Shown here: one piece after another, positions 27,699 to 54,545 of the stretch
Layout: each line of letters starts with the position of its first letter
Position numbering within the stretch: position 1 is the first letter of the stretch
Notes under the pieces: generated by a model
What the model saw: the letters and a program-made list of their open reading frames with translations, nothing else
What the model was told of the DNA's origin: nothing
Databases searched by the model: none
Assembly: GCA_965223155.1 (NCBI GenBank)
Contig: CBDCVR010000013.1
Location: forward strand, 352,001-416,000
Source of the DNA: Candidatus Multivoradales bacterium
GTDB taxonomy: Bacteria > Acidobacteriota > Thermoanaerobaculia > Multivoradales > JAHEKO01
Length of the DNA: 64,000 bases
Direction of reading: 5' to 3'
Translations under genes and position numbers: made by a program

Positions 27699-27831
27699 GC
27701 CAACGGGATGTTCAAGGGGTGGTGATTGTGACGCACAAGCCCGATCAAGGCAAACGGTCCGGACCCGTCACAGGCGGGCCCGGACCGAATGGAAAACGCG
27801 AGTTGCAAGAAACCGAGATGGCCCGGGGGAC

Positions 27832-29664: not shown

Positions 29665-29748
29665 GTCCATCCTCCGGAAACAGTATCGGGACAAAAAACT
29701 CAAAGCGCCGGAGGGGCTCCAGCCGGCGCGGGTCTCCACCCGGCTACG

Positions 29749-36493: not shown

Positions 36494-36512
36494 TCTTCCT
36501 CCCTCTCCGTCC

Positions 36513-38111: not shown

Positions 38112-38113
38112 TT

Positions 38114-39535
38114 CTAGTCGTCCCCGTCCTGGTCCTCGGTGGTCATGGCCTCGGGATTCTCGAGATCGACTTCCCCGAGAAGCTCGAAGTGGTTCCCGCT
38201 CTTGAGCCAGCGCCAGCTCCACCAGGCCATGGCTCCGTCGGTGATCGGTGTCTCGGCGATGAGCTGGCGCATCTCCGCCTCGGTCTTCGCCCGGGCGTCG
38301 CTACACCGCCGGTTCTCGGCACAGGTGACCGGCGCACAGTGATGAGCGCCCGAAATCGGCACGACCGGGAAGTGCGTGTCCTCGCTCCAGCGCCGCACGG
38401 AGTCCGGTGGATACGCGGCAGGCGCGGTGTCGCATCGATCGTAGATCTGAGGCAGGCCGTAGTCGGCATCGATGAAGGCGGCCAAGGGAATCTGCGGGCG
38501 GCCCAGCGAGGTGACTCCAACCGAGAGGTTGCGGGGCTCGGCGAGCTCGCGAGCCGCCGTCATCAGGGCTTCCGATCGAGCCCGGTTGCGGCTGAAGTGG
38601 GCCTCGGGATCCAGAATGATCCCCGTGGCGTCGAGATGGAGCGCGCCTTCCACCAGCTCCTCGACCTGGCGGCGAATGGCGTTGCCATGCTCGGGAGCAC
38701 CGCGCCACGCGAAGATGTCGATCTCGGCCGCATGCAGGGCTTCGAGGTAGGGGCCGAGCGCTTCGATCTGATCCTCGGTCAGCGGCACATAGGTATCGCG
38801 GGGATGGTAGTGCGTGGGCCAGGCGACCCACTGGATTCCGGCCTCCCGGAGACGGGTCACGAAGTCACTCGGACTCCCGAGGAAGGCGAAGGAAGGCTCC
38901 TCACCCGCCTCGACCGCCGCCAGCACCGCCCGTGCCTCGACCCCCGTGATCGTGCGCTGGAAGAAGATCCCCTTGCCCCGGGGAATCCCAAGGCGCCAGA
39001 GATGCGCCCAGTTGGCGGCGTTGCGCACCTCGTCGATCCACGCGGCATCGGAAGGAGCCAGCGCCGCGGCGGCCTCCCCCACGACCAGCGCCCGGACCGC
39101 GTGGCCATCCACCGTGCGGGACGGAGACACAAGACGCCGGCCATCCCGGTCGCGAACGGAATCTCCCAGGAGCTCCAGCAATTCAGGGGTCGGATCCCGG
39201 TCGTCGACCAGAAACACGTAGTCGAAACCCGGCAATTCGTTGCGGCGCTCGACGCCGTCGCAGAGCTCGAGCTCCAGAGCCTCGGCCGCCGCGCGCAGCC
39301 CCGGCACGTCCTGCTCGCAGAAGGGCTCGGCCTCGGCGGTGACTCCGTCAGGGCAGGACGCCCCAGCTCCGGGCAGCTCCTGCGCGCAAGTCGATGGAAA
39401 CTCTTTGGGTACAAAGAAGATGCGAGTCCGGGCGGCCGCGGTGCCGGCCCCTCCCAGGAGGAGGAGTGTCGCCAGGGCGGCGAGGGCCCGCCTACCCGGA
39501 GAGGCTCGTCGTGGGCGAAGACTAGGAGCCTTCAT
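38114..39535 (-). CDS. Secreted cargo-type protein C4: shared Cys4 N-domain + glycoside hydrolase-like TIM barrel
   Basis: Signal peptide (TAAA), TRIFFVP...C4...YVFLVDDR; GKGIF, GIQWV, GIILDPE, VGVTS, LPQIY, AWWSW pattern of (beta/alpha)8 glycosidases. Confidence 0.75.
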   Translation of the reverse strand: MKAPSLRPRRASPGRRALAALATLLLLGGAGTAAARTRIFFVPKEFPSTCAQELPGAGASCPDGVTAEAEPFCEQDVPGLRAAAEALELELCDGVERRNELPGFDYVFLVDDRDPTPELLELLGDSVRDRDGRRLVSPSRTVDGHAVRALVVGEAAAALAPSDAAWIDEVRNAANWAHLWRLGIPRGKGIFFQRTITGVEARAVLAAVEAGEEPSFAFLGSPSDFVTRLREAGIQWVAWPTHYHPRDTYVPLTEDQIEALGPYLEALHAAEIDIFAWRGAPEHGNAIRRQVEELVEGALHLDATGIILDPEAHFSRNRARSEALMTAARELAEPRNLSVGVTSLGRPQIPLAAFIDADYGLPQIYDRCDTAPAAYPPDSVRRWSEDTHFPVVPISGAHHCAPVTCAENRRCSDARAKTEAEMRQLIAETPITDGAMAWWSWRWLKSGNHFELLGEVDLENPEAMTTEDQDGDD

Positions 39536-40592
39536 CGTCGTAGATGGCTATCGATTCCACGGAGCCCCCCTCGGTGTTCCGCATGACCGTGACGGGAACG
39601 TAGGTCTCCTCGCCGTTGCCGACGCCGGCGTCCGAGAGCTCGCCGTGGAGTCGCCTCAGGCCGTCGCTCCGACGGGCCGCGGAGTACGCGGCCGAACGCT
39701 CGATGCCGCCGATCTCGCTGGCGAGCGCTCGTCCGACCGCATCGCGCCACCGAACGAAGCTTCGATGAAACGGCACTGGCACCTCGCGTTCCTCGAACGT
39801 GAAGCTGGAAGCCTCGGGGCTCGGTGTCGGGGTCGTCAGGCCCTCGCCGGTCTCGGTCGGTGCCTCCCGTCGCCGGTCTCCGTCACCTCCTCCCCGGCCA
39901 GGGCTAGGCACAGACAACCCACCGGCGCCCTCCGCCGGCCTCTCCGCAGAGCCGCCTCCGGCCGCAGGGGTCGAATCGCCGTCGCCGCGGTTCTCGGGCA
40001 AGGCGCCAGGACCAACGACCCGGCCCAGCTCGCCCCCCTGCGTCAACAGGCCGCGGATCCGTTCTTGCCAGGCCGAAGTCGGAATCGCACCGCCCCCTTG
40101 CCCTCCGACGCGGGACATCTGCTCCCCGACCACGAGAGTGCGCCTGGATCGGCTGAGGGTATCGGTGAAGACCCGAAACGAGGGCTCGATCATGCGCCGG
40201 CCACCCTGGGAAACGAGCGTCGGACCGAGGGCTTCCAGAAGCGCTGAGGAAGGATTCGAGTCGTCCACGAGAAGGACCAACTCGACGGTCGATTCCGCGA
40301 GAGAGACCAGAAACGGATTGGGCATGCTGTTGCCCTGACAGTCTCGAAGTCCCAAGGCACTGCGCGCCGAATCGAGACCGGAGAGGCCGAGACGGCAGAA
40401 CGCCTCGACTTGACCGGTCACCCCATCGGGACATCGCGCCCGATCCTCGGTGAGAGACCAGGCGCAGACGGCTGGAAACCGCCCGGGCACGAAGATCACG
40501 TCCACGCCGGCGACCGCCGGCAGCGGGGCGAAGACGCCCGCCAAGCCCAAGAGGCTCGCGATCACGAGCTTCCGAAGGCCGGTCCTACTCAA
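39522..40592 (-). CDS. Secreted cargo-type protein C5: shared Cys4 N-domain, Gly-rich linker, short C-domain
   Basis: TTG start overlapping P1 stop, signal peptide (PAVA), VIFVP...C4...LVLLVDD...VGE. Confidence 0.75.
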   Translation of the reverse strand: MSRTGLRKLVIASLLGLAGVFAPLPAVAGVDVIFVPGRFPAVCAWSLTEDRARCPDGVTGQVEAFCRLGLSGLDSARSALGLRDCQGNSMPNPFLVSLAESTVELVLLVDDSNPSSALLEALGPTLVSQGGRRMIEPSFRVFTDTLSRSRRTLVVGEQMSRVGGQGGGAIPTSAWQERIRGLLTQGGELGRVVGPGALPENRGDGDSTPAAGGGSAERPAEGAGGLSVPSPGRGGGDGDRRREAPTETGEGLTTPTPSPEASSFTFEEREVPVPFHRSFVRWRDAVGRALASEIGGIERSAAYSAARRSDGLRRLHGELSDAGVGNGEETYVPVTVMRNTEGGSVESIAIYDDEGS

Positions 40593-42801
40593 CCGGTGTC
40601 CCCATCGACACGTTGTCCACCACGACCATGTCGGTCAGCCCGCCCCGTAACCGGTCTGTCTTGACCTGGGTGTTGTCATCCAACGTCCAGACGATCTCGT
40701 ACTCGAATTCGGGGCGCTCATCCGCCGGATGGGCGTACTTGACCATCTCGGAAAACCTCGGCACCTCGGCGAACTCGCTCAGCTCGACTCGTTCGATTCG
40801 CTGTTTGCCGAAGAGATCGAAGTAGAGGGTGATGGTCGTCGAGATCACGTTCTGGCTGTCGAGACGGTCGGACCGGGCCAGGAGGCGCAGATTGCGGTAG
40901 CCATGAGGCGGCGACAGCGCCAGGCTGGAGTCGGACGATGTCTGCCGCCCGGAGCGCCATTCGGCGCCGCCGAAGAGGCTCCACACGACTTCGTAGTCGT
41001 ACGCGAGCCATTCGTCGCCACGATCCCCCTGAAGCATGGGATAGACCAGGAGCTTGCGCACGCCCTGCTCCAAGCGCCGGAACTGGTCGCGATCGAAGCG
41101 CGTGGTGCGGACGGTCGTCTCGCCGTTGCGGTGCCTCTTGGTGAGGGTCAACTCGACGTGATTCACGAACTGGCCGAAATCCGAGGCATCCAGGCCGTCC
41201 AGGGTGACCACCACCCGGCGCTCGCGCATGGCGGGGTCGTCCCAGTTGACCACCAGGTAGTGATCCGGGTCGTTGAACAACCGGCGCAGGCCGCCCATCG
41301 GGAAGTCGAAGGGCAGGTTCTGGGTGTCGTAGGTGGCCTTCTTCCAGTTGAAGTTGAACTCGCCCGAGCGCTGGTACTCCTTTTGCCGGTACGCGGCGAG
41401 CAAGGAAAACGTGGGCTCTTCCTGGATGTTGGCCGGCGTCGCCTCGCGGCCGCCGCCCCCCTGGCCGGGACGGGTGCCGGACTGGCCGGCGCCGCTTCCC
41501 GAAGAGCCTTCCGGGGTCGCTCCGGGCGTCTGTCCCCTGGTACCTCCCTCGCCTGTTTCGCCGCCTCCCGCGGCAGCCGTCGAGCCATCCGCGGTTCGGG
41601 TCCCGGACTCGCTTCCTTCTCCACTGCCGGCCCCGGCGCCGGCGGTCGCCGTCTCCGAGCTGGAGCTGCCCTGCCCGAGCGGCAGGTGGTCCAGGATGGG
41701 CAGATGGGTGACCGTCGGATCGGTGTCCGTCCGAAGCGCCCGCTCCCGGGCGATCTCTTCCCGCTCCTGGCGCTCCCGCTCTCTCTCCCGCTCGTTGGCG
41801 CGGCGGACCCGCTCCTGCTCCTCCCGCTGAAAGCGGCTGGCGCGATCGAAGTTGCTGTAGAGATTCTGGTCCGGCTGGAGGGTCGCTACGAGCTGCGGAT
41901 CGCTGTCCACCTCGAACAGCATGCGCACGACGTGCCCCTCCGCGGTTCGGATGGCCTCCTGAAGGTTCTCGCACTCTCCCTTCTGCTCGAAGGTATACGC
42001 CTTGTCGGATTCCAGCCGGCTGACGACGCGCTGTACGTCGACACCCAGGATCGGGGTCCTGAGGCCGGCCGCCATGGCCTCGTTGGCCGCGATGTTCTCG
42101 AAGCTACCGGAAAGCTCGGCGTCGCACGGGCTCCGCAGACCGACCATGTTCATGTCGAATTTGACGGCGAGCTGCCCCGAAGCCTGGCGCAGAGACTCGC
42201 GCATGATGGTCGCGCCCTCGCCGGTGAGACGGAGGTTGATGGCGGTTCGGTGTCCCTCCATGACGGGAGCCTTGCCGCCGCCGACGATCTTGGTGATGAA
42301 CTCCCCTTCGTCGTTCTGGAGGCCGGAGGAGACGAAGACCTGCCCCGACTCGTAGGTGATCGCGCCGGCCACCCGGGCGCCGGGGACCTGGCGGCGGAGC
42401 TCCTGCTCGGCCTGGCGCAAGGTCTCGTCGTCCACGTTGAACTCGACGGCGAAGGACACGAAGCCCTCGGCCACGGAGCGGCCCGTGCCGCCTTCGACGA
42501 AGTCCGGCTGCTCTCCGCTCGGCGTGTTCTTGACGAAAATCAGGAAGCTGAAGATCGGCTTGCCGTTGCGCATCGCGAGGCGCGGCTTGTCGGGCAGGTA
42601 GTAGAAGGTCGTGGGCTCCTTGTACTTGGGATAGAAGCGCAAGCCGCCGGCGTCGATGCCCTCGTCGAGCATCACGTCCCGCGAAGCACCCGCGGGCAGC
42701 GCCGTAAGGAGCAGCACGAGGCAGCATGCGGTCAAGGTGAGGAACCGGTGGGTTGCGGTCATTGACTCGATCGCGCGGTCGGCGGGTTTCATTGGTTGCA
42801 T
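40585..42801 (-). CDS. Secreted paralogue P1 of unnamed YYLPxxPRL family
   Basis: AAAGGAG RBS, signal peptide, TFYYLPDKPRL...GKPIFSF, GKAPVMEG, two YxYxVxW beta-sandwiches; ER-rich/Gly-rich insertion. Confidence 0.85.
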   Translation of the reverse strand: MQPMKPADRAIESMTATHRFLTLTACCLVLLLTALPAGASRDVMLDEGIDAGGLRFYPKYKEPTTFYYLPDKPRLAMRNGKPIFSFLIFVKNTPSGEQPDFVEGGTGRSVAEGFVSFAVEFNVDDETLRQAEQELRRQVPGARVAGAITYESGQVFVSSGLQNDEGEFITKIVGGGKAPVMEGHRTAINLRLTGEGATIMRESLRQASGQLAVKFDMNMVGLRSPCDAELSGSFENIAANEAMAAGLRTPILGVDVQRVVSRLESDKAYTFEQKGECENLQEAIRTAEGHVVRMLFEVDSDPQLVATLQPDQNLYSNFDRASRFQREEQERVRRANERERERERQEREEIARERALRTDTDPTVTHLPILDHLPLGQGSSSSETATAGAGAGSGEGSESGTRTADGSTAAAGGGETGEGGTRGQTPGATPEGSSGSGAGQSGTRPGQGGGGREATPANIQEEPTFSLLAAYRQKEYQRSGEFNFNWKKATYDTQNLPFDFPMGGLRRLFNDPDHYLVVNWDDPAMRERRVVVTLDGLDASDFGQFVNHVELTLTKRHRNGETTVRTTRFDRDQFRRLEQGVRKLLVYPMLQGDRGDEWLAYDYEVVWSLFGGAEWRSGRQTSSDSSLALSPPHGYRNLRLLARSDRLDSQNVISTTITLYFDLFGKQRIERVELSEFAEVPRFSEMVKYAHPADERPEFEYEIVWTLDDNTQVKTDRLRGGLTDMVVVDNVSMGTPVE

Positions 42802-42844
42802 GGAGATCTCCTTTCGGTGTCTCTCGGGTCGGTGTCTCGCGGGA

Positions 42845-44986
42845 TTAGTTGGTGCCATCGTCACTGCCGTCGAAGAGGTCGCGCACCGCATCCACGCGCT
42901 CGCCCAGCTCCCTGGCGAAGCCGTCCGGAAGGCCCGAAACGCTGGCGTAGGCGAAATCGCCTTCCAGCAGGCGCCAGGGACTCGCGGGGAGCTGGCCCTC
43001 TTCCTTGTGGGTAAAGACAAGGCTGTAGTGGACGGGCGTTCGTTCGGGATCTCCCTTGTCTACGAACAGCCGGGTCTCGACATAGGGAGCGGGGCGAGCG
43101 ACTCGAAATTTCACGGTCTCGATCTCTTCCTTGCCGTACCGGGAATGGCGCAGCAGGACGTCCACGGCTCGGATTCCGAGTCGCTCGAACTCGTCCAGGT
43201 CGGCCTCGACCTCCACGTCCCGCGCCTCGATGGGCGGAACGAGGGTGATGTTCATCTCCCTCGTGCAGTTCTCTTCGGTGTCGGGCGGCCACTTGCCGCC
43301 ACCCCGCAAGCTCCAGGACTGCGAATACCGGATCGGGCAGCGGGCGTTGAGCTCCTGGCCGCCGGTGGCGAAGGTGAAGGTCTCGACGACGTCGCCGGTC
43401 TCGACCGTGGCACGGTCGAAGACCTTGTCGCGCCGGTTGGCCCCGGCGTAGCCGGGAGTGACCTGGACGGCCACGTTGTTGACCATCCCCGCCTCGAACA
43501 GATCGAGTGCGTCGGCGTCGAGATCCACGACGACCCGGCCGCGGCGAAAGAAGGGATCGTTCAACAGCACCGTGCTGAAGACCTCGTCTTCGTGATCGCG
43601 CAGCTGGGCGCCCAGGTTCCCCGTCATGGTGTGGCTCCGGTAGACGGCCATCGACTTGGTTACCTTGAAGGCGATCTGTCCGGACATACTCTCCCGCTTC
43701 TTGCGAATCGTCAGAATCTCGTAGCTGGTATTCGCGGGCCGCTCATCCTCGTCGTCTTCGTCGTCGCCACTGGTGTCGATGTCTTCGGCGCCCGGCATCG
43801 AAAACGAGCGCTGAATCTCCATGAAGCTCTCCATCGCCTGATCCATCAAGGCTTGCTCGATGAAGGAAACGTCCACGTCCGGGAGGTTCTGGTCGATGGT
43901 GATGGTCACTGCTCCGGTGGTGCGCAAGACGTCATAGGTGTGCTCGTACTGCTCGCGCGAGATGCGGTCGATGGACTCCGACTCGGTGTAGTACGGGATG
44001 ATGATGAAGCCCCAGGACTTCTTGGTGCTCCGGGTAACGGTCTGCGCGTCGTACGAGCACTCGGCGAGCTTGCGCACCCGGTCGAGGTTGATCCGAACCT
44101 CGGCGTTGAAGGCGCGGGTCTTGGCGATGTAGTCGTAAGCGAAGGTCACCGAGAGATCCGAGGTCGCGTTTTCGAAGGTTGACGCGAGCAACTCGGCGCC
44201 GATGGGCGACAGCCGTCCGGCGAGGGCGGCCTTGCCTCCCGGGTAGGTCGGCGCCTTGCCCGACTTCAAGACTCCCGCGGGTGTGAACGAGGTGTCGCTC
44301 AGCGTCCCGGAGGTGACGACGAAGTTCTCTCCCGTCGCCGCCGGCGTCAGCTCCACCATGCCCCGCAGCCGAGCTCCAGGTACCGCCTCCTCCAGGGTGG
44401 TCCGGAGCTCCGCTTCCTCATCCCGGGTCAGGCCGTAGCTCATCATCATGTGAAAGATGCCGCCGGCCGCGGAGTCTGGGCCCTCTTCCTCGTCGGTAAT
44501 GAACTTGACGAAGGTGGCCTCGGGCCTCTCGTCTGCGTACGACAGCTTGGGCTCGGTCGGCAGGTAGTACCAGTCCGAGGGCTTGGGCGCGGCAGAAAAG
44601 ACACCGCCCACGGCCACCACTGCCCGCAGCTTGGGGACGGAGCGCAGCCAGGCCGGCCGCTGGGCCGGCGCCACGGGCCGCATCTGGGCCTGCTGGCGAT
44701 GATCCCGCACCCGGCCGATGCGCTCGTCGTAGCGGCGCTCCAGCTCGTCGCAGGAGGCGTCCTCGGCCTGCGCCGGCAGGTCCGGCGGCTGGGCCCAACG
44801 GGGATGGAGATTGTCGGTCGTCGTGTCTTCGGCGCTCGGAAACACTCGGACCGTCGTGCCATTGCTGAGCACGAAGTCCATGTGCATGCCGAGCTGGACC
44901 GCGGCATTAGCCGGCGCGACCGACAACGCTCCGAGCATGAGCGGGACGATGAGAAGTAAGGCCAGAAAGGTCGGGGCGGATCGCAT
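42845..44986 (-). CDS. Secreted paralogue P2 of unnamed YYLPxxPRL family
   Basis: GGAGG RBS, signal peptide (ANA), WYYLPTEPKL...GGIFHM..YGLT, GKAPTYPGG. Confidence 0.85.
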   Translation of the reverse strand: MRSAPTFLALLLIVPLMLGALSVAPANAAVQLGMHMDFVLSNGTTVRVFPSAEDTTTDNLHPRWAQPPDLPAQAEDASCDELERRYDERIGRVRDHRQQAQMRPVAPAQRPAWLRSVPKLRAVVAVGGVFSAAPKPSDWYYLPTEPKLSYADERPEATFVKFITDEEEGPDSAAGGIFHMMMSYGLTRDEEAELRTTLEEAVPGARLRGMVELTPAATGENFVVTSGTLSDTSFTPAGVLKSGKAPTYPGGKAALAGRLSPIGAELLASTFENATSDLSVTFAYDYIAKTRAFNAEVRINLDRVRKLAECSYDAQTVTRSTKKSWGFIIIPYYTESESIDRISREQYEHTYDVLRTTGAVTITIDQNLPDVDVSFIEQALMDQAMESFMEIQRSFSMPGAEDIDTSGDDEDDEDERPANTSYEILTIRKKRESMSGQIAFKVTKSMAVYRSHTMTGNLGAQLRDHEDEVFSTVLLNDPFFRRGRVVVDLDADALDLFEAGMVNNVAVQVTPGYAGANRRDKVFDRATVETGDVVETFTFATGGQELNARCPIRYSQSWSLRGGGKWPPDTEENCTREMNITLVPPIEARDVEVEADLDEFERLGIRAVDVLLRHSRYGKEEIETVKFRVARPAPYVETRLFVDKGDPERTPVHYSLVFTHKEEGQLPASPWRLLEGDFAYASVSGLPDGFARELGERVDAVRDLFDGSDDGTN

Positions 44987-45037
44987 CGGAGTCCTCCAGA
45001 TCGATAAGAACGAATCGGTTCGAAAAAATGACGTCAC

Positions 45038-46846
45038 TTACGAAACCTCGGGAAGCCGGTCGCAGAAGATCGTGCCCGGCTGAGCGGTGCGGCGTTCGAG
45101 ACGCACCCGCGAATCGTCTTCGAGGGTCCAGACGATTTCGTACTCGATGGTCGTCGGGTCGCTGGTGTCCACGGGAACCGGAATCGGAGTCGCCGCCCGC
45201 AGCAGCCCCTCTTCGGGGACGAGCTCCAAACGCTCGCGCCGCTTGCGGCCGAAGAAGTCGTACCAGAGAGTGATCGAAACCAGCCGAACTCCCGCCTCCT
45301 CCAACCGCTCGGCCGAGGCACGAAAGGTCACGTCTTCAAACTCGAACGGGGGTACCAGCGAGTGCGCGCGGTCGGTCGATTCGATCGGTCCGTCCGTCTT
45401 CTTCGCGCCGCCCAAGAAGGACCAGCTCACGCTGTAGCGATAGCGCTCGAAGTCCATGAGGTCGGTCTCACGGTCCCAGGAGTAGGTCACGGTCTTGGGC
45501 TCGCCGCTCGACAGTTCCTGGCCGTGAAAGAGGACTTCGCGAACCGACTCCGTCCCGGAACCGTGCAGCTTGCGCAGTTCGACGGCGACGCTGGTGACGA
45601 ACCGCCGGTAGGCTTCCTCCCAGAGTCCGTCCAGCGAGAACACGATCTCCTTGACTCGAAACTCCGGGTCGTCGGCGCGGGCGGTGCGGAAGATGCGGGG
45701 ATCTTCGGCGTACTCCTTGTACAGGCTGCCGATATTGCCGCTCAAGACGGCGGTGACCTGGTCGCTCGCCGCCTCGTTGAAGTTCACCGTGTACTCGCCC
45801 TCCCGAGCGATCTCTCTTTGCTTGAAGCCGCCCTCGAGGCTCAGGTACCAGGGGGCCTGCTGGTGGCCGGCGCCGGCGGCCATGGGCAGCAGCGAGGTGG
45901 CAAGATCGTCCAGGTTCGGAGTGTCCTCGGCGAAGACGTCCAGCGGCACCGGCTCGAAGACCTTCTTTTGCAGGATCTCGAACGTCCTCTCGTAGAGCGG
46001 CTGCATGCTCTCGAGGGTCCCCTTGCCCGAACAGTCGATAGCACCGGTCTCGCGCGCCTTGTCCCAGAAGTTTTCGTAGTCGAATCCCAGATTGATCGGC
46101 CCGTAGCCGAACTTGAAGCCAACCTCGGCTTCCACGTGCTCGTGAAACTTGTCCCAGAAGACCGAGCAACTGGCTTCGACGGGATCCCGGATCCCCGCGT
46201 AGGTGAGCTGAAAGACCATGGCGATGTCCGGCGCCGCCATGCCGAACGAATTCCTCAGGATGGTGGCGCCCTCCTTGGTGAGGTGGAGCGAGACCGCGGC
46301 CTTGTGCCCGGGCAGAAGCGGCGCCCGTCCGGTGCCGACGACCGCGTGGGAGAGCTTCCGGGTGTCGGCAGGCGGCTCGTCTTCGGGCAAGAAGGACGAG
46401 ACCAGAGCGAAGGAGCCCTCTCGAAATTGCACCGGGCCCGCCAGCACCGCGTCCTCGACGTCGTCACGCAGGGCGGCCTCGGCGGCCTCGACGTCTTCGG
46501 GCTCGGTCCCGAACTCGACCAGGAAGTGCACGATGCCGCCGCCTCCCGCTTGGGTCACGCCGCCTTCGGAGGCGACCGCCGACAGATCCCGGTAGGTCAG
46601 GAAGGAGAACTCGGGCAAACCATCCGGCCGGCGGGCCAGCCGTGGCTCGGCCGGCAGGTAGTAGAAGACCGTGCGTTCGGAAAACAGGGGCAGGCAGACG
46701 AGCGGTCCGCAGGTTCGAGCGTGGTCGAGCGCGAGCTGCTGTGCACGTGCCGGACGACTTCCGGACGCAAGAAGCCACGCCGCGCCGAGGGCCAGCGCCA
46801 GGAGGCACCCTGGAGACAGCCTGGGAAGTGATCCTCGCCGCCTCAC
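45038..46846 (-). CDS. Secreted paralogue P3 of unnamed YYLPxxPRL family
   Basis: GTGA overlap, signal peptide (ARA), FYYLPAEPRL..DGLPEFSF, GGGIVHF, GRAPLLPG. Confidence 0.85.
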   Translation of the reverse strand: MRRRGSLPRLSPGCLLALALGAAWLLASGSRPARAQQLALDHARTCGPLVCLPLFSERTVFYYLPAEPRLARRPDGLPEFSFLTYRDLSAVASEGGVTQAGGGGIVHFLVEFGTEPEDVEAAEAALRDDVEDAVLAGPVQFREGSFALVSSFLPEDEPPADTRKLSHAVVGTGRAPLLPGHKAAVSLHLTKEGATILRNSFGMAAPDIAMVFQLTYAGIRDPVEASCSVFWDKFHEHVEAEVGFKFGYGPINLGFDYENFWDKARETGAIDCSGKGTLESMQPLYERTFEILQKKVFEPVPLDVFAEDTPNLDDLATSLLPMAAGAGHQQAPWYLSLEGGFKQREIAREGEYTVNFNEAASDQVTAVLSGNIGSLYKEYAEDPRIFRTARADDPEFRVKEIVFSLDGLWEEAYRRFVTSVAVELRKLHGSGTESVREVLFHGQELSSGEPKTVTYSWDRETDLMDFERYRYSVSWSFLGGAKKTDGPIESTDRAHSLVPPFEFEDVTFRASAERLEEAGVRLVSITLWYDFFGRKRRERLELVPEEGLLRAATPIPVPVDTSDPTTIEYEIVWTLEDDSRVRLERRTAQPGTIFCDRLPEVS

Positions 46847-48744
46847 CGAGACTCCTCCACCTCGTCCGCCGCCGGTTTCAACTCGGGTTCGGGCTCAGGC
46901 TCGGGCTCCGCGGTCGGCGGTCCCGCCAGGACTACGCTCAACTCCGTGTCCTCGACCTCCGTCCAGTCGCTCGAGACATTCCGGTTGCCGTCCTGCATCC
47001 AGCGAATGCGGTAGCGAACCGGGGAGCGCTCGTCCCGGATGAAGTTGGTCTCCATGTAGTTTTCGGTCTCGCCCGGGCGGAAGCTCTTGTTCAGGAACTT
47101 GCGTCGTCCCATCAAGCGATATTCGACCGACAGCGACACTCGGCGGACTTCTTCTTCGATGAGCGAAGACTCATCCAGCTCGATGAACACCGAGACCTTG
47201 TCCTTCGGCGGCGCCAGGTCCAGGATGCCCCGGCGCGAAGGGGCGAAATCCTCGGGATCTTCGGACGGGAACGACACCGTTTGGCCTCCGCGGAAGCTCC
47301 AGATGACTCGGTACTCGTAGCTGCTGGCGTCAAGGCCCTGGAGCCCGAGCTTGGGATAGCTCAGGGTCTTCGAAAAGGTTCCGCTCTTGACCTCGTCGCG
47401 TCCGAAACGGGCCTCCCCGACGAAATCCGGTTGCTCGAGTCCCGGATAGGACTTCTTGATCTCCACCGAGGCGGAGTTGATGACCGACGAGAAGGCGTCG
47501 TAGAAGTCCGGGTCCACCTGAAACAGGATCTCCCGCCTCAAGAACTTCGAAGCTTGCGGCGACACGATCTTGAACAGCCGCTCGTCGTCTCCCCAGACCT
47601 CGAAGAAGCCGCGCATGTTCCCTGCGGTATTGAACGGCACCTGAATCGTGGTGTTCTCGGTGAAGCTCAGCGAGAACGTTCCCCGGCGGATGTCTTCGCG
47701 GCGGCGCAGGGTGTACTGGTCCTCGGTCACGAACTTGGGATTCTCGTTGCCGCCAAAGGTCTTCTGAAACCAGCTTCGCTCGGCCCGCTGCGCGACCACG
47801 TCCTCCGGAACCTTCTCCTGTTCCGGGAGCTGCGATAGCCCCTGAGTCGTGTCGAAGAGCATGTCCACGAGCTTGGTCGTGACGAGATCCATCAGGCCCC
47901 CGAGAGTCGAAGTGCCCGCGACTCCAGCGCGGCTCGTGACCGAGACGTCGATTACCCCATTGCGCTGCAGTTCGTCCATATGGTCGCGAAGCTCGCGCTT
48001 GGAATAGTTCGCCTGACGGTTCTGGACGGCAAAGAAGTGCTCGTAGACGGTGCTCAGATCGGCGAACACCCTTCCTTGGTAGCTCGGAAGAGCCGCTTCG
48101 TAGTAGGCCGTGATCGCGACCGAGATGTCCGACGTAGGGGACTTGAGGGTCGCGTCCAAGAGAGTCGTGGACTCCGGACTCAAGAGCGCCGACACCGCGG
48201 CCAGCGAACCGGGAGTCACCGGCGCCACACCGGAAGTGACCATCTGGGACCGGAAGCCCGCCACCGCACCTTCGGCGCCGGGCGCGCCGGAGCCCGAGGT
48301 CAGGGTCGAAGAGGTCACCATGAACGAGGGCTTGGGCCCTTCATAGCCCTCTTCTTCCTTCTTCACCAGGAGCGGAACCGGACCTCGGAGGCGAGCTCCG
48401 GGAACCTCCTCGTCCAGCCTCCGCTGGAGCTCTTCGATGACGTCCTCGGGCAACTGGAGGGTGAAGAGAAAGTGCAAGAGGCCGCCGCTCACGGCCTGGG
48501 TCTCGCCGACGTAGGTGACGAACGTCATCTGGGGCAGGCCGTCCTCGTGGGTCGAAACCCGCGGATACGGCGGAATGTAGAAGTAGCTCGACGGGTCGTC
48601 CTTGTCGCGCAGCAAGGTGATGCCGTTGAGGGTCAGGCGGCCCTCCTCGTAGAGAACGACTCCTTCCGCCGCCGCCGGAACCAGGAGCGCGCCGATCAGA
48701 ACGGCGCACCGGCAAGCTTGCGTGAACCAACTGCTTCGCTTCAT
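46843..48744 (-). CDS. Secreted paralogue P4 of unnamed YYLPxxPRL family
   Basis: Signal peptide (AEG), YFYIPPYPRV..DGLPQMTF, GGLLHF, GVAPVTPG; PE-repeat tail. Confidence 0.85.
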   Translation of the reverse strand: MKRSSWFTQACRCAVLIGALLVPAAAEGVVLYEEGRLTLNGITLLRDKDDPSSYFYIPPYPRVSTHEDGLPQMTFVTYVGETQAVSGGLLHFLFTLQLPEDVIEELQRRLDEEVPGARLRGPVPLLVKKEEEGYEGPKPSFMVTSSTLTSGSGAPGAEGAVAGFRSQMVTSGVAPVTPGSLAAVSALLSPESTTLLDATLKSPTSDISVAITAYYEAALPSYQGRVFADLSTVYEHFFAVQNRQANYSKRELRDHMDELQRNGVIDVSVTSRAGVAGTSTLGGLMDLVTTKLVDMLFDTTQGLSQLPEQEKVPEDVVAQRAERSWFQKTFGGNENPKFVTEDQYTLRRREDIRRGTFSLSFTENTTIQVPFNTAGNMRGFFEVWGDDERLFKIVSPQASKFLRREILFQVDPDFYDAFSSVINSASVEIKKSYPGLEQPDFVGEARFGRDEVKSGTFSKTLSYPKLGLQGLDASSYEYRVIWSFRGGQTVSFPSEDPEDFAPSRRGILDLAPPKDKVSVFIELDESSLIEEEVRRVSLSVEYRLMGRRKFLNKSFRPGETENYMETNFIRDERSPVRYRIRWMQDGNRNVSSDWTEVEDTELSVVLAGPPTAEPEPEPEPELKPAADEVEESR

Positions 48745-48793
48745 AGGGAACTTCCTCTTCCTAGATCTAGTGGATTGACGTCGGGCGATACCG

Positions 48794-50710
48794 TCATGAC
48801 GAGCCTACGGGTGCGATCGAGCCGGTCTCATCCGAACTTGTCGTGGCAAGCTGAGGCCGGAGCTCCGGGAACCGCGACAGCACCGCGTCCTCCCCCATCA
48901 TGTCCGCTGCGGCCCTGGCCTGTGCTTCGGAGCGCTCGGCGGCGTTCGTCAGGAGCTCGGCCGGCAGCGCCGCGTAGAGATAGTCGCCCCCGGTCCAGCT
49001 CCGCCAGGCGAGGGCCATGGCGCCGTGCTCTCGATGCTGGTAAATGAGGCGCATAGCGTAGCCCGCGGAATCTCGATCCACGAGCACGCGCTCGGTAACG
49101 TAGGGCTCTCCTCGGAGTCTGAGGCGCAGGGTGGCCTCGGTCTCGCGCCCGAAGCTCCAGTAGCGGATCTTGACCGTGGCCCGCGTAAACCCCGCGGCCT
49201 GGAGCTCGACAAGGTCGCCTTCGAGCTCGAGAGACCGTGGGCGTACCGGTGGCGTCAAGGTAACGCCTTGCCACGTTCCTTCCCGCCATTCGGCACGCAC
49301 CGGGTACGTGGTGCCGTCCCGCAGTGTCCACTTCACGAGGTACTCGAAGGCCGCCGACTCGGCTTCGGAACGAGGGTAGTCCAGAGATACGAGAGGGCCA
49401 TCCCGGCGCAAGACGTCCCGATCCAGGGTCTTGCTCTCCAGGAAGTCGCGCCCTCCGGCCCTGCGCTTTCGAAGAGTGATCTGAACGTGGCGGATGGCTT
49501 CGTCGAAGATCTCCTCGCCACCCAAGCTCAACAGGAAGGGGACGGTGCGGATCGAATCGAACCACTGATCGACACGGACCGTCTCCACGCATCGCGGATC
49601 CTCGCGCACGGCCTCGTACCAGGACTTGAGGTTCGCTACGAGCTGATGCTCCCGGCGCACCGGCAAGCGGACGTCCAGCCGGGTGTGTTGCGTCGGCGTC
49701 GTCACCGGCCGGCTCCTGCCTGTGGCCCAACGCGGCCGATAGCGGTCGGCAAACCGCGCTCCGGGCCGGAGCCGCTGCAGGGCCCTGTCCGCTCGGGAAA
49801 GCGTTTGCCGCCCTGGATCGATGTCGGCGACGAGTTCCAGAAAGCGCTCGAAAAAGGTGGATTCAATCTCCGCCAAGCGGTCGTCGGGAATGGCTTCGTC
49901 CCAGTGGAAGCGAATGACTCCCTGGCGAATGAGGTACCGGTACTGGCGCTCGAGCTCGACCAGGCCCGTCGTCTGCCCGGTCGGGTTTCCCCGGCAGCGT
50001 CCGAGGAGGCACGCACCACCGTAGCCGCTCAGCAGCGACTCGCCTTCCCGCTCGAGCGTTCTCCAGTCGATCGAGACCGAGCCGCGGGCCGCGGGCACCG
50101 CCAGGTCGTAGCCGAACTCCAGGATCAGCGAGAGATCGGCCAGAGTCGTGGCCCCCTCGAGGGTGGCCCGCAGGATCTGGGCTTGGTGGGAGTCCAGGCG
50201 CGCCGCCACCGCCACTCGTCCACCCGGAAGCAGGGGCGCGAATCCCCCGGTCAGGACCGCGGCCTCGGACCCTTCCGAGTCGAGCGTTCCCGAGACCAGC
50301 CGGAAGCTCCGTTCGGCCCCAGCGGCAGTCAGAGGCAGGGCCCCCAGGAGCTTGGCCCCCGGACGGTTGCGGCCCAGCAGGGCGGCAAGCTCCCCTTCTT
50401 GCGCCGGAGTCAAGCCCCAGGTCACGCGCAGGTTGAGCAGGGCTCCGGCCGCGTCTCCCTGGTCCTCGTCCGATTCAAGGACATAGGTTCGAAGCGCGAA
50501 CTCGGGCTTGCCGTCTTCGGCCACCGCGAGCCGGGGATTGGTGGGCAGATAGTAGTAGCCGTCGGAATCGGAGACCGATGCGTACGCCACGACCCGGGTG
50601 CCGTCTTCGAGCTCCGCTTCGAGGAGGCTCGCCGGCTCCAAGAGCGCGCCCGCGACGGGCGCGCTCCAGGACGCCACGAGGAGGGTCAGCAGCGCGAGAC
50701 GCTTGCTCAT
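48794..50710 (-). CDS. Secreted paralogue P5 of unnamed YYLPxxPRL family
   Basis: Signal peptide (VAG), YYYLPTNPRL..DGKPEF, TWGLT, GFAPLLPGG, FEYLVKW. Confidence 0.85.
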   Translation of the reverse strand: MSKRLALLTLLVASWSAPVAGALLEPASLLEAELEDGTRVVAYASVSDSDGYYYLPTNPRLAVAEDGKPEFALRTYVLESDEDQGDAAGALLNLRVTWGLTPAQEGELAALLGRNRPGAKLLGALPLTAAGAERSFRLVSGTLDSEGSEAAVLTGGFAPLLPGGRVAVAARLDSHQAQILRATLEGATTLADLSLILEFGYDLAVPAARGSVSIDWRTLEREGESLLSGYGGACLLGRCRGNPTGQTTGLVELERQYRYLIRQGVIRFHWDEAIPDDRLAEIESTFFERFLELVADIDPGRQTLSRADRALQRLRPGARFADRYRPRWATGRSRPVTTPTQHTRLDVRLPVRREHQLVANLKSWYEAVREDPRCVETVRVDQWFDSIRTVPFLLSLGGEEIFDEAIRHVQITLRKRRAGGRDFLESKTLDRDVLRRDGPLVSLDYPRSEAESAAFEYLVKWTLRDGTTYPVRAEWREGTWQGVTLTPPVRPRSLELEGDLVELQAAGFTRATVKIRYWSFGRETEATLRLRLRGEPYVTERVLVDRDSAGYAMRLIYQHREHGAMALAWRSWTGGDYLYAALPAELLTNAAERSEAQARAAADMMGEDAVLSRFPELRPQLATTSSDETGSIAPVGSS

Positions 50711-50731
50711 TTTGTGCACCTTGGCCGCACT

Positions 50732-51835
50732 CTAGTAAAGCTCCCTGGGGTCCAGGCGGGCACCCGCTGGCCCATCCTCGATCCGATCGCGGAAGCGCGT
50801 CACGTCGAGCGATCCCGTCCAGGAGGCGACCCGTTGCCACGGTTCCGATTCAGTTGCGTGATCGTATTCCCGGGTCACCTGGAATTCGTAGCCGTCATCC
50901 AGCTCGACGGCGAACCGAAACCGCACCTCCTCCCGGGAGCCGGTCGGTGGCGCGAACTCGACCGCCTCGATCGGCCGGTCGCCATTGACCGCCACGGCGC
51001 GCACCTGGACCACGACCAGGCGTAGGTCTTGAGGCACGGCTCCAGCGGCAAAGTCATGACAGTAGATTTCCAGAAACGGATAGTCCGCGGGGATGCGGGT
51101 GTCCAGATCCACGATCCGGAAGCACCTGGGACAGTCCGTCGGAGCGATATCGAGCGCCAGGCTGTCTCCGCCGAGAGCCCGTTCCACGAGCTCGGGCTCG
51201 GCGCTGGTGCCGTTGGTAGTCGTACCGGCACCGAGGCTGCCCGGTCGATGCGGTACGACCTCGGCGCTCAGGGTGTAGCTCAAACTCAGAGCGAGACTGC
51301 CATCGTGCAGGGAGTCCCACAGCAAATCCGCGGTCAGCGAGTCCAGGGACACTTCATAGGTTTGCTCCGACCAGCGCTCGGGCTCGTCGTCCCAGGACCC
51401 AGAGGCGATCTCCCCGCCCGTGCCTCGCTCCGAGCCGGCATAGACGAGCGAGCTGCGGATCCCGGAGATCGGGACCGGCTCGAGTCGAACCGCTCGCCGT
51501 GCCCGCGCCTCGAGGTGTGAGCGCAGCGCTTCGACGCCGCCGGGATCGGCTTCCAGCCGCACCGAAAAGCGCAGAACCGAACGGGTCCAGAAGCGTTCGG
51601 CATCGGCCGTCGCCGTGGTCCCCTTGTAGCGAAACCGCTCGAACGCAAAGGCAGGAGCGCCGCCCTCGCGAACCAGCTCCAGCTCGGCCGGCAGGTACCA
51701 CCAGCGCAGCGAATCCTGATGATCCGGAAAGTACCGGAGGCCCTGCCCGAGGCGCACCTCGCTTGCCACTGGCCACGCTCCAGCCGCAGCTACCTGGACC
51801 ATTCCAAGCACGAAGAGCGGCAGGATCCGGATCAC
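50732..51835 (-). CDS. Short secreted paralogue P6 of the same family (lacks central region)
   Basis: GTGA overlap, signal peptide (AGA), YFPDHQD..RWWYLP..L....GAPAFAF, YEFQV. Confidence 0.8.
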   Translation of the reverse strand: MIRILPLFVLGMVQVAAAGAWPVASEVRLGQGLRYFPDHQDSLRWWYLPAELELVREGGAPAFAFERFRYKGTTATADAERFWTRSVLRFSVRLEADPGGVEALRSHLEARARRAVRLEPVPISGIRSSLVYAGSERGTGGEIASGSWDDEPERWSEQTYEVSLDSLTADLLWDSLHDGSLALSLSYTLSAEVVPHRPGSLGAGTTTNGTSAEPELVERALGGDSLALDIAPTDCPRCFRIVDLDTRIPADYPFLEIYCHDFAAGAVPQDLRLVVVQVRAVAVNGDRPIEAVEFAPPTGSREEVRFRFAVELDDGYEFQVTREYDHATESEPWQRVASWTGSLDVTRFRDRIEDGPAGARLDPRELY

Positions 51836-53769
51836 TCGGCGAGCAGTCCCTCGATGGTTCCGGCCTGCAGGAAGACGAGCTCCGGGTTATAGCTGGACGG
51901 CGCAAGCCATTCGCTCGCAACTTCGTCATGGGCGGTATAGACGACCACCCGGTATTCGTAGATCGGTTCCTCGGCGTCGGACGGCGCGAACAAGGTCGCG
52001 ACCTCCCGAACCGACTCGGACCCTCGGCCGAACTCATAGCTCCGTTCGCTCAGGCTCGATCTCTCGGGATCGGGATCGAAGAAGCGCGAGCGTACCCGGA
52101 CGATGACCAGATCCAGCCCGTACTGCTCGAACAAGGCCTCGGTGTCGGCCACGCGGATGCGGACGTTGGTCTCCGGAATTGAGCCAACGCCGCCCCGCAG
52201 CGCGTCGAGAACGCCTTCCATCTCGGCGTCGCTGGGAGCGAGATCATAGTCGTACCAGGCGGCGACGGTTGCTCGGTCCTCGATCTGCGGAGAGATCTCC
52301 CGGTTCGAGATCGGGAGACTCTCTCCTGGAGCCACCACCGCCCCGCCAAGCGCGTAGCCTCGAAGCCGCAAGCGATTGCGCTCGCTCCGCAGGTACAGGA
52401 TGTGATTCAGGCGCACCGAGAAGGGATGCCCATTCTGGAACTCCGTCGTGGTTTCACCGGACCGCATCCAGGCCGCCCGCCCGTAGGCCAGATCATCGGC
52501 GAGGTTGAGGTTCGCGGTCACACCCAGCCTGCCCAAGTCATCGGACTCGTAGTAGACGTCGCCGCCCAGCCCCATGCGCTCGTTGGCAAGCGCCTCGACC
52601 AGGGACTGTCGCTCGGCCGAATCAACGCTCACCGAAAGAACGAACTCGCCTTCCTCATAGCTGAGCTGGGTGATCTCGGGCTCCTCCTCGACCAGGCGCC
52701 AGTTGAAGGCCGGCTCCAGGTCCGCGGTCAGGGGCCGCAGCTTCACGTCGGCAGCCGAGCCGCTGGGATTGCGATCCAGATAGGCCTCGAGCAGCTCGCG
52801 CAGGATCTCGAGGTCCCGCTGGGTCGTGCCGTCGGTCAGGGTCATGTTGACCAGGAAGTTCTTGCCCGACCCGTCGCTCGGCTTGCTGAAGAAATTCAGG
52901 TAGTAGCCTTCCTCATCGGTCCATTTCAGCGACCAGCGCTTGGGCTGGTAGTAGTAGACGCCGGAGTCCAAGTTCTGATCCTGGTAGACAATCGTGCTCA
53001 GATTCAGCAACCCCCGGACGTCCTCGAAGCCGAAGGCTTCGAGCTGGTCCACCAGGGGTTCGCTATAGAGCTGGATCTCGCGGCCGGCGCCCCGAGTGTT
53101 GAGGTCCCGGTTCTTCTCCTCGGACTCCTCCTTGGCTTCTTCGGGCGTCTTGAGCGTCACGGTGGCAACCTGGTGGGTGAACGCCCCCTGACCCACGAGG
53201 TCCGCGATGCCAAAACGGGCAAGGTTGTTCTTCTCCAAGTAGCCCTCGACCCGGTAGCGGCGGTAATCCGGCGGCAGGCTCGAGCGGCCGGTCACGTTCG
53301 GATTCGTGGTCGTGAAGTTGTCCTCGCGGGAGCGACTCCAGAAGCTGGTCAGGGGAAGCCGGTTCGAGCCCGTCTTGGTGGACAGATAGCCCTCGAGGCG
53401 GACGAACTGGTACCCGCTGCGTCCCTGTCCGGGCCGGCCGGCCCACACCGGGTTCGAGGTCGTAAAGTAGTCGCCCCGCGACGGACTCCACCATCGGTAC
53501 AGAGGTCGCGTGTCCTGCGGCTGCGCGGCATCGGGTGAGTGGATGTATCCCTCGACTCGAACGAATCGGTAGCCGTCCTTGGTCGCGCCAGAAGCTCCCT
53601 TCCAGCGCGGATCGCTGGTCGCGAAGTTGTCTCCTCGGGCATCGCTCCACCAGGAGTACACCGGAATCAGTCCTGCCTCCGCCGCGCCGGTGAAACTCAG
53701 CGCCAGGACGAGCAGGCCGGCAAACGTCCGGCTTTGAGTGCGACTTGGGCAGCAGTACATCCTCTTCAT
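51832..53769 (-). CDS. Secreted divergent paralogue P7 with three N-terminal DUF5648-like repeats
   Basis: ATGA overlap, signal peptide (AEA), 3x P(V/L)..(W/F)WS..R.D.F.T..P...Y....EGY, then VYQD...VYYYQP...YEYRV. Confidence 0.8.
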   Translation of the reverse strand: MKRMYCCPSRTQSRTFAGLLVLALSFTGAAEAGLIPVYSWWSDARGDNFATSDPRWKGASGATKDGYRFVRVEGYIHSPDAAQPQDTRPLYRWWSPSRGDYFTTSNPVWAGRPGQGRSGYQFVRLEGYLSTKTGSNRLPLTSFWSRSREDNFTTTNPNVTGRSSLPPDYRRYRVEGYLEKNNLARFGIADLVGQGAFTHQVATVTLKTPEEAKEESEEKNRDLNTRGAGREIQLYSEPLVDQLEAFGFEDVRGLLNLSTIVYQDQNLDSGVYYYQPKRWSLKWTDEEGYYLNFFSKPSDGSGKNFLVNMTLTDGTTQRDLEILRELLEAYLDRNPSGSAADVKLRPLTADLEPAFNWRLVEEEPEITQLSYEEGEFVLSVSVDSAERQSLVEALANERMGLGGDVYYESDDLGRLGVTANLNLADDLAYGRAAWMRSGETTTEFQNGHPFSVRLNHILYLRSERNRLRLRGYALGGAVVAPGESLPISNREISPQIEDRATVAAWYDYDLAPSDAEMEGVLDALRGGVGSIPETNVRIRVADTEALFEQYGLDLVIVRVRSRFFDPDPERSSLSERSYEFGRGSESVREVATLFAPSDAEEPIYEYRVVVYTAHDEVASEWLAPSSYNPELVFLQAGTIEGLLAE

Positions 53770-54545
53770 CCTTCCTCTTCTTGCGCCAGGATCCGGAGCA
53801 CGGCTGGTGCGCTCCGCCGGCCCTCCGCGTCCTCCACGATCACGTCCCGCACTCCAGGATTCGGGGCGAAGCCGCGGTCCAACTCGACCTCGACCAGCTC
53901 TTGGTCGATGAAGTACACCGGAAACTCGCGAAGCCCGTAGTCCGGCAACCGCGAAGTCCCGGCATGGAGATTCGCCAGAATCCAAACCTTCGAACTCTCC
54001 GAAAAGCCTTCTCCGAAGACCTCGAGGAGAAGCGCTCGGCCGGCCGGAATCGCAGCCGGCCGGATTTCCCGGATCGCCGGGCCTCCCGCGGCCGCGGTGT
54101 CAGGCTGGGTCTCCTCATCCCAGTTCCCGCCCGAGATCTCTTCCTCAGCCGGCACTGTCTCCTCCGCCCCGTCCCGGACCTCTCCGATGGTCAGAGTAAG
54201 CGCGAGTGAGCGCTCGCCGCTTGCCGCCTCGACCAGGATGGCGCGCTCCCTAGGTACTGGCGGCAGGCCCAACGGAAACTCGACAACCAGCCTCTCCGCG
54301 GAGCGTTCCGCGGGCGTCCGGCGAAGGTACCTGCCAGCCTGGCCGGCCTCGACCAAGATCACGGTGGAGCCGTCGAAGCCCGCACCGTTCAGGACCAGAG
54401 AGAAGGCCGTCCGCGCCGGAACGCTCGCGGGCTCGAGCGAAGCGAGTTCCGGACGAGCGGATTCAGTCTCAGAGCCGGAGCCGGTACCGGCGCCGGACGT
54501 CGCCACAGAAATCAGGACCGCGAGGACAAGAGCCAGTTGGCGCAT
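53766..54545 (-). CDS. Secreted protein with two IPT/TIG-like Ig domains
   Basis: Signal peptide; 2x P.(L/I)..(L/I).PA..PA.......GxGF....(V/I) with a conserved RxILVE/RDVIVE strand. Confidence 0.75.
   Translation of the reverse strand: MRQLALVLAVLISVATSGAGTGSGSETESARPELASLEPASVPARTAFSLVLNGAGFDGSTVILVEAGQAGRYLRRTPAERSAERLVVEFPLGLPPVPRERAILVEAASGERSLALTLTIGEVRDGAEETVPAEEEISGGNWDEETQPDTAAAGGPAIREIRPAAIPAGRALLLEVFGEGFSESSKVWILANLHAGTSRLPDYGLREFPVYFIDQELVEVELDRGFAPNPGVRDVIVEDAEGRRSAPAVLRILAQEEEG

Follow-up and report, generated by a model that had tools for sequence, protein, structure and literature searches.

Co-inherited secreted paralogues of five ancient types in an operon of Candidatus Multivoradales bacterium, possibly the core of a hetero-oligomeric assembly

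A stretch of 64,000 nucleotides from Candidatus Multivoradales bacterium (Acidobacteriota; assembly GCA_965223155.1, contig CBDCVR010000013.1, positions 352,001 to 416,000), hereafter the window, carries on its minus strand seven neighbouring genes for paralogous, putatively secreted proteins, A to G, at 40585 to 53769 (positions are those of the window). The copies are five ancient types, orthologous across phyla and co-inherited in a fixed order. The favoured reading, to which a probability of about one half is given, is that the seven genes form the core of a self-contained, horizontally mobile operon whose secreted products assemble into a hetero-oligomer, which may be a complex for attack or delivery.

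The seven paralogues had been proposed in a first-pass annotation of the letters alone, and their relationship was confirmed, by BLASTP for five of them, by profile for B and through B for A. C, D, E, F and G, which the annotation had taken as full-length copies (its P1-P5), matched each other over their full length with E values from 1e-9 to 8e-43 and 23-35% identity. The order of motifs it had listed was recovered as invariant or near-invariant columns in the C-G alignment, namely Y63, P65 and P68 for YYLPxxP, P78 for GxPxF, A133 and G137 for GAxLxG, G173, A175, P176 and G180 for GxAPxxPG, and Y471 and W475 for YxYxVxW. B (its P6; 50732-51835, 367 aa) is a short subunit in which the N-terminal portion of the family domain is combined with one C-terminal sandwich, and in pairwise BLASTP only its first ~200 residues were shared (E 2e-4 to G). 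It is a firm member since it matched the family profile (hmmsearch E 3e-8); the hidden Markov model (HMM) of its own type gave it 390 bits, and a profile of ten B-type orthologues was aligned with the family profile at an hhalign probability of 98.7% (E 4.5e-16, 194 columns).

A (its P7; 51832-53769) is an A-type subunit of ~470 aa with an N-terminal extension of three DUF5648-like repeats. Its pairwise BLASTP match was marginal (E 0.048), and it is linked through B because a profile of seven A-type orthologues matched the B-type profile (hhalign probability 96.8%, E 2.9e-10, 291 columns); the match of the A-type profile to the long-form profile was in the last beta-sandwich only (probability 67%, E 5e-5). 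The C-terminal 430 aa of A also matched locus L031 (E 5e-54), and in every other locus they matched the gene of ~500 aa that precedes B. The repeat domain which the annotation had seen in A is present, but it is an N-terminal addition and does not replace the central region.

The five long subunits fall into three types, as could be seen from a tree with 59 long proteins, for which the window was combined with 16 of the 34 named loci that hold close relatives (the other 18 were omitted to limit its size). Three deep clades were obtained, with support from the Shimodaira-Hasegawa-like approximate likelihood ratio test (SH-aLRT) of 100 for type I (E, G and forms bearing tetratricopeptide repeats, TPR), 99 for type II (D) and 100 for type III (C and F). 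D, E, F and G each stood in a clade of five rows together with orthologues from Nitrotoga, Arenicella and Marinicellaceae (SH-aLRT 99-100; D 99, F 100). C joined the L007 and L031 genes of type III and paired with a Wenzhouxiangellaceae protein (SH-aLRT 99), a join flagged as a possible long-branch artefact. When the five window copies were constrained to one clade, 914.9 log-likelihood units were lost (p-AU 1.3e-5 in the approximately unbiased, AU, test). This by-genome clade was taken, before the tree was seen, from the first-pass annotation, which had named clustering by genome with random copy number as the outcome that would speak against it; recent expansion with random copy number is thus refuted for this lineage.

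In addition, HMMs for the types A, B, I, II and III were built without window sequences and applied to the open reading frames (ORFs) of all loci. Here 36 loci were counted (the 34 named ones, that of genome G036 and the window), leaving aside the divergent loci of genome G026 and a variant contig of the window's own assembly. All five types were found in 27 of the 36, that is in the window and 26 others, with every ORF classified by wide margins, and the remaining nine (L001, L012, L013, L019, L021, L025, L029, L030 and L033) have a contig edge on the side of the missing gene. In the window the best type scored 405 bits and the runner-up 155 for C (extra type III subunit, 48794-50719, 641 aa), 641 against 252 for D (type II, 46843-48744, 633 aa), 536 against 200 for E (type I, 45038-46846, 602 aa), 650 against 202 for F (type III, 42845-45037, 713-730 aa depending on the start codon) and 501 against 159 for G (second type I subunit, 40585-42801, 738 aa).

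The order of genes is kept as well. The five types are adjacent on one strand in the window, in the order A, B, III, II, I, III, I, and there are seven genes because type I occurs twice (E and G) and type III twice (C and F). The order A-B-II-I-III-I was found in 6 loci, the window has a variant of it with one extra type III gene, and the order X-A-B-I-II-III, which begins with a further gene X, was found in 16 loci; in L016 gene X has moved. By the tree, the AU test and the type HMMs together, each paralogue belongs to its own orthologous clade across genomes. These sequence comparisons leave the non-redundant roles of the paralogue types, as the first-pass annotation had suggested, well supported. 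A pore is unsupported, and so is kinship with complement or known pore-forming toxins, for which there was no Pfam match and no such fold among the structure-search matches.

The named hosts of the 34 loci belong to Pseudomonadota, Thermodesulfobacteriota, Campylobacterota and Acidobacteriota, and include Nitrotoga, Arenicella, Marinicellaceae, Wenzhouxiangellaceae, Marinagarivorans, many Desulfobacterales and Desulfatiglans, Hydrogenimonas, other Campylobacterales and one Acidobacteria metagenome-assembled genome. Close to the window's own host, the family was present in 0/24 genomes of the same family, 3/16 genomes from other families of the same order and, at E<=1e-20, 3/301 genomes of the phylum, own genome included. 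Such a broad yet scattered distribution is consistent with a cassette being passed on horizontally. Among plasmids, tblastn gave one weak partial match (Pararhizobium, E 2e-7). The ratio of nonsynonymous to synonymous polymorphism (pN/pS) between two variants with 98.2% identity was 0.039 for D, 0.067 for E and 0.081 for F, which indicates purifying selection. The second variant is a contig of the same assembly (G000:C8, L038, 9572 bases), 98.2% identical to 40269-49836 of the window with 165 mismatches and 6 single-base indels; both C and F are interrupted by frameshifts in it, the C part is rich in nonsynonymous differences (pN/pS 1.27), and rather than a second locus it probably represents a strain variant or a poorly assembled contig.

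The family as a whole is large. A profile of the five long copies, searched against 1.84 billion representatives of a library clustered at 50% identity, matched 2064 representatives at E<=1e-3, 1200 at <=1e-10 and 487 at <=1e-30. In Pfam at E<=1, A-G gave only DUF5648 (in A) and a sub-threshold DUF5403 (in F), and 68 diverse family members gave TPR repeats in two and BNR_4 in one, with no family-specific match. For the family no NCBIfam match above the cut-offs was obtained, the best hit of the sequence profile search against the PDB had E 0.28 and concerned unrelated chains, only clusters of "hypothetical protein" without names were matched in the ESM Atlas, and nothing on the family was found in the full-text literature, in which supplements were outside the scope.

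Two beta-sandwiches at residues 398-602 of E were predicted in a full-length AlphaFold2 model (23 sequences, mean predicted local distance difference test, pLDDT, 79.2), in line with the sandwiches that the first-pass annotation had read from the letters. A large domain at the N-terminus, a hinge of poor prediction quality (residues 307-339) and then the two sandwiches, predicted with confidence (mean pLDDT of 10-residue blocks mostly 86-96 over residues 401-600), make up the model. The N-terminal domain of E alone (residues 35-400, 132 sequences) was modelled at pLDDT 87.3 and a predicted template modelling score of 0.79, and as modelled it is without a clear match to a known fold. Foldseek against the PDB gave only Ig-like/MG-domain arrays for the full model, at a template modelling (TM) score of ~0.1, and 0 matches at E<=1e-3 for the N-terminal domain. 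In a wide VIA-align run over 48,161 chains the top-scoring match of the full model was SgrA (Z 7.9) and that of the N-terminal domain ITIH1 (Z 6.5). These alignments span ~100 residues of the sandwich core, and the tool rates this Z range as a common arrangement. The nearest structural neighbours of the long-subunit model, all weak with Z below 8, were adhesins, pilins and FN3 arrays. No chain of the MACPF/CDC kind, with a bent central beta-sheet between two helix clusters that refold into membrane hairpins, appeared among the Foldseek and VIA-align matches of either model, an absence which does not exclude the fold.

One further match of the N-terminal domain was found in BFVD, to the uncharacterised protein A0A7S7YF07 of Medusavirus stheno T3 (E 1.4e-7, TM 0.28, 16% identity over 229 columns). 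It was the sole match below E 1e-3 in the structure libraries and gives no function. A catalytic site in the N-terminal domain was considered and rejected, since some of the window paralogues have other residues in place of the His and Asp that are nearly invariant across the wider family.

The hinge seems to accept inserts. In G, an Arg/Glu-rich charged stretch and then a Gly/Ser/Glu/Thr-rich low-complexity insert lie between the N-terminal domain and the sandwiches (alignment columns ~440-600), and in type I orthologues of the other architecture TPR repeats stand in the same place.

Two modules give a hint of glycans. The N-terminus of A matched DUF5648 (PF18885) at residues 108-230 of the 717-aa ORF, with Pfam E 2.3e-5 and 25.1 bits against a gathering cut-off of 25, and three DUF5648-like repeats are visible in its sequence. 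For group-1 BSAPs, whose described members target O-antigen, PMC12853789 describes DUF5648 as a propeller with three blades, located in the C-terminal domain that binds the receptor and with O-antigen glycan as its presumed ligand. In the other architecture, gene X has a weak NPCBM- or fucolectin-like C-terminus (E 5e-4 and E 0.039); gene X was also tried as a member of the paralogue family and rejected at an hhalign probability of 1.5%.

The operon extends to both sides of 40585-53769, so that the full system has 14 genes at 33414-56195. All of A-G lie head to tail, with overlaps of 4 nt between A and B, between D and E, and between A and the gene before it, and the remaining gaps are 12-51 nt. 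The GC content of the window is 0.61-0.69, and the third-position GC of A-G is high, as in real genes. The N-termini of all 14 products are hydrophobic. Those of A-G are basic and then hydrophobic and resemble Sec signal peptides on inspection, and the earlier description of the seven as secreted rests on this segment. Among the 14 genes no signal segment ends in Cys, so no lipoprotein signal was seen. A scan for promoters and terminators gave nothing above shuffled expectation. For the part at 45038-48744, four DNA-type runs of one study contained the stretch and no RNA run was listed.

Upstream of A, and overlapping its start by 4 nt, is W259 (53766..54545, minus strand), a 259-aa secreted protein in which two IPT/TIG-like repeats could be made out by eye. 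Its homologues are ORFs directly 5' of the A-type gene in L031 (BLASTP E 3e-31) and L006 (E 9e-21), and the latter has a Pfam TIG match (E 4.7e-6). The gene at 54552..56195 (minus strand), recognised from its ORF and translation and ending in a stop 6 nt before the start of the next gene, is probably the first of the operon. It encodes a secreted protein of ~547 aa with a hydrophobic segment at the N-terminus, without homologue among the ORFs of the other loci and without Pfam match at E<=0.01 (a weak DUF3805 match had 0.031); three similar segments of ~110 residues with a recurring YRP...G.Y.V.F...VQVTA.G...C pattern were noticed by eye. Outside the operon, a 638-aa ORF (27832-29748, minus strand) adjoining dnaB (26268-27767) had no Pfam match at E<=0.01.

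Downstream of G, five proteins of a second family are encoded on the same strand (H-L, 33414-40592), each with a signal peptide, a common N-domain of ~150 aa and then a C-terminus unrelated to the others. H (39522..40592) overlaps G by 8 nt and ends in a Gly/Pro-rich tail (jackhmmer E 1.6e-46), I (38114..39535) has a C-terminal domain of ~300 aa, J (36513..38111) a C-terminal domain which recurs beside the G036 cluster, K (35225..36493) a Cys-rich C-terminus and L (33414..35243) an HExxH motif (HETVH) within its C-terminal domain. The C-terminal domains of I and L gave no match in Pfam or in the PDB sequence search. In the shared N-domain, four Cys are invariant in the window's five copies and two of them in 12/12 aligned sequences, together with a VFLVDD motif. 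The conserved Cys pairs would fit an oxidising compartment and do not distinguish the periplasm from the outside.

In the host genome (4.0 Mb, 98.7% complete) this N-domain is confined to H-L and the variant contig. Outside this genome, seven more copies were found downstream of the clusters in Nitrotoga, Arenicella and Marinicellaceae, and two of the seven are joined to a central tyrosinase domain (L003:16006-17856 of Arenicella, E 1e-32; L001:13087-15066 of Nitrotoga, E 3e-31); the Nitrotoga fusion also carries DUF7868 and a polyphenol-oxidase C-terminal domain. A word-based protein search gave 4 matches, two of which were the window's own, a metagenome scan gave none, and no match was obtained in genomes G036, G026, G202 and G269.

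The C-terminal domains of J and L also occur beside other clusters. Residues 186-511 of J matched L037:2450-3643 in G036, two genes past the last paralogue (E 1e-33, 29% over 342), and the C-terminal domain of L matched the gene after the Wenzhouxiangellaceae cluster of L007 (E 9e-13); the shared N-domain is missing in both. In G036, moreover, a gene overlapping the end of the last paralogue (L037:3745-4893) encodes a secreted protein in which an acidic linker accompanies an N-acetylmuramoyl-L-alanine amidase domain (Amidase_2, E 7e-19). Secreted enzymes thus recur at the tail of the cassette, in one branch with a private N-terminal domain. From their sequences H-L look like dedicated cargo or effector proteins, and since the second family was found only in the window and 4/34 named loci, it is an accessory and lies outside the core mechanism.

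In the favoured reading the subunits are not interchangeable, since every occurrence of the cassette retains a separate gene for each type, and the five types would most likely occupy different positions in one hetero-oligomer. A long subunit would consist of the large N-terminal domain, a variable hinge and two Ig-like sandwiches, where the hinge may be the site for partner-binding inserts, such as the TPR repeats in other genomes or the charged stretch and low-complexity linker in G. More speculatively, the complex could assemble on a glycan-bearing surface, as hinted by DUF5648 on A and the lectin-like C-terminus of gene X, and in this subtype its partners could be H-L, the five secreted proteins encoded with it. 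Their shared N-domain may serve to dock H-L on the complex and so give enzyme domains access to the envelope of a target cell, an access hinted by the nature of the neighbouring enzymes; such an arrangement would be reminiscent of complement acting with lysozyme, or of binary toxins of the anthrax type.

Several points weigh against this reading. The hetero-oligomer is inferred from genes, and no result shows any two of the proteins touching; a complex prediction of A (185-645) with B (21-367) from alignments made here scored 0.00, in two runs without controls which have no bearing on binding. Co-inherited paralogues would also be expected for proteins that act sequentially or on different substrates without forming a complex. 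The number of long subunits is not fixed, being 3, 4 or 5 in core systems, and two genomes of the same order (G026 and G037) hold 9-11 far more divergent paralogues which share mainly the N-terminal domain. A Sec signal in diderms reaches the periplasm only, and the cluster encodes no outward export route. No pore-forming, MACPF/CDC, aerolysin-like or PA-like (protective antigen) fold was found in four structure searches, an absence which does not exclude such a fold. The DUF5648 match sits at the Pfam threshold (25.1 vs 25 bits) and the other A-type N-extensions have no Pfam match, and the second family is restricted to the few loci named above.

The divergent clusters of these two genomes (L035 and L036 at G026:C11:92000-130500, and contigs C67 and C79 of G037) encode proteins of 716-1250 aa with type-HMM scores of 40-97 bits, intermixed with unrelated genes and an IS200-like transposase. 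Nine of their proteins were scanned, with no Pfam match.

Of the other explanations, a multi-component pore-forming toxin, which would be the literal form of the first-pass annotation's comparison with complement and in which one or two subunits bind the membrane and recruit others that insert a beta-barrel, with H-L as passengers or helpers, is rather unlikely. Ancient non-redundant paralogues in one operon would suit it, as would the possible receptor module on A, which recalls the BSAP pore toxins, and the envelope-degrading or -modifying enzymes adjoining the clusters (peptidoglycan amidase, HExxH protein, tyrosinase). Among bacteria the two-component CDCL toxins offer a precedent, as they work in the manner of the complement membrane attack complex (PMC11169675). 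However, no Pfam pore-toxin family was found in A-G or in any of the 68 family members (0/68, E<=1e-3), no such fold was among the structure matches despite the confident model of the N-terminal domain (pLDDT 87.3), and a small immunity-like gene is not evident between the genes of the cluster.

A scaffold on the producer's own surface or outside its cells, such as a fibre, sheath or matrix built of ordered paralogues as in a pilus, with enzymes displayed in the manner of a cellulosome via the docking domain, seems less probable still. The two Ig/FN3-like sandwiches ending the long subunits, whose nearest structures are adhesins, pilins and FN3 arrays, point in this direction, together with the TPR or linker inserts at the hinge and the make-up of H-L, in which one common N-domain with differing C-termini resembles dockerin-bearing enzymes. 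But those structural matches are weak (Z below 8), Pfam scans of the cluster and its flanks showed no usher, chaperone, sortase or outer-membrane anchor encoded in the cassette, which also lacks a lipoprotein signal, and most loci have the core cassette without enzyme partners.

About equally improbable is a periplasmic envelope complex, or a set of separate binding proteins for different ligands without mutual contact, for which the Sec-type signals, by themselves placing the proteins in the periplasm, the 9-11 divergent relatives per genome in G026 and G037 and the TPR inserts, common in periplasmic scaffolds, could be counted, but the one-to-one orthology of five types over four phyla in fixed gene order and the patchy, island-like distribution, which is not that of housekeeping genes, argue against it.

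With the hetero-oligomeric assembly kept as the favoured reading, a wider claim could be put forward only tentatively, as a doubtful extension of it: an undescribed, phylum-spanning class of secreted multi-subunit attack or delivery machines may exist, composed of five types with a new N-terminal fold and swappable glycan-targeting modules (DUF5648, gene X), with docked private effectors in one branch (the HExxH protein, tyrosinase and others), which would be a counterpart of complement made from unrelated parts.

A large family is left without annotation at present, with no relative in Pfam, NCBIfam or the PDB, and strict retention of old paralogues marks multi-subunit machines such as complement, pili and secretion pseudopili. 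If the cassette encodes an attack or delivery complex, it would be a new class of weapon in microbial antagonism in sediments and waters, and also a new protein-translocating or enzyme-presenting scaffold; if a surface structure, it would be a new kind of envelope appendage. In either reading, the unnamed gene cluster is now a defined system with named parts.

Compared with known systems, the cassette has partial likenesses to several. Chaperone-usher and type V pili are ordered fibres made from paralogous subunits, and the likeness lies in a single operon that encodes several paralogous subunits with beta-sandwiches, some of them short, each having its own orthologues. The cassette differs in that no usher, chaperone or pilin family of Pfam was found in the cluster and its flanks and no lipoprotein signal was seen, and its subunits are much larger, with an N-terminal domain of 360 residues without a clear known fold.

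In binary toxins of the anthrax type, the enzymatic parts share an N-terminal domain which docks on an oligomeric binding part. H-L similarly share an N-domain and have unrelated C-termini, a likeness in architecture only. In contrast to these toxins, A-G contain no binary-toxin Pfam family at E<=1 and gave no PA-like structure match, the shared domain is missing from most core-cassette loci, and docking is here a proposal drawn by analogy.

The BSAPs, which are MACPF toxins of Bacteroidales, have in common with A the DUF5648-like three-repeat module. In A, however, the module is N-terminal and stands on an unrelated family with a score at the Pfam threshold, and glycan binding would be assumed by analogy.

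From the MACPF/CDC proteins, the cassette differs in having no sequence relation and no detectable fold relation to them and, set against the two-component CDCL toxins, five types instead of two; an assembly and a pore are here putative. In complement and in the CDCL toxins of Bacteroidota (for the latter, PMC11169675) the paralogues take non-equivalent places in one assembly; the CDCL hosts are gut Bacteroidota, whereas those of the cassette are environmental Proteobacteria, Desulfobacterota, Campylobacterota and Acidobacteriota. By membership tests the cassette falls in no known family, and by analogy it would be functionally most like complement C6-C9 and the CDCL toxins, with which it shares diverged secreted paralogues encoded together, the ancient types being kept one-to-one here.

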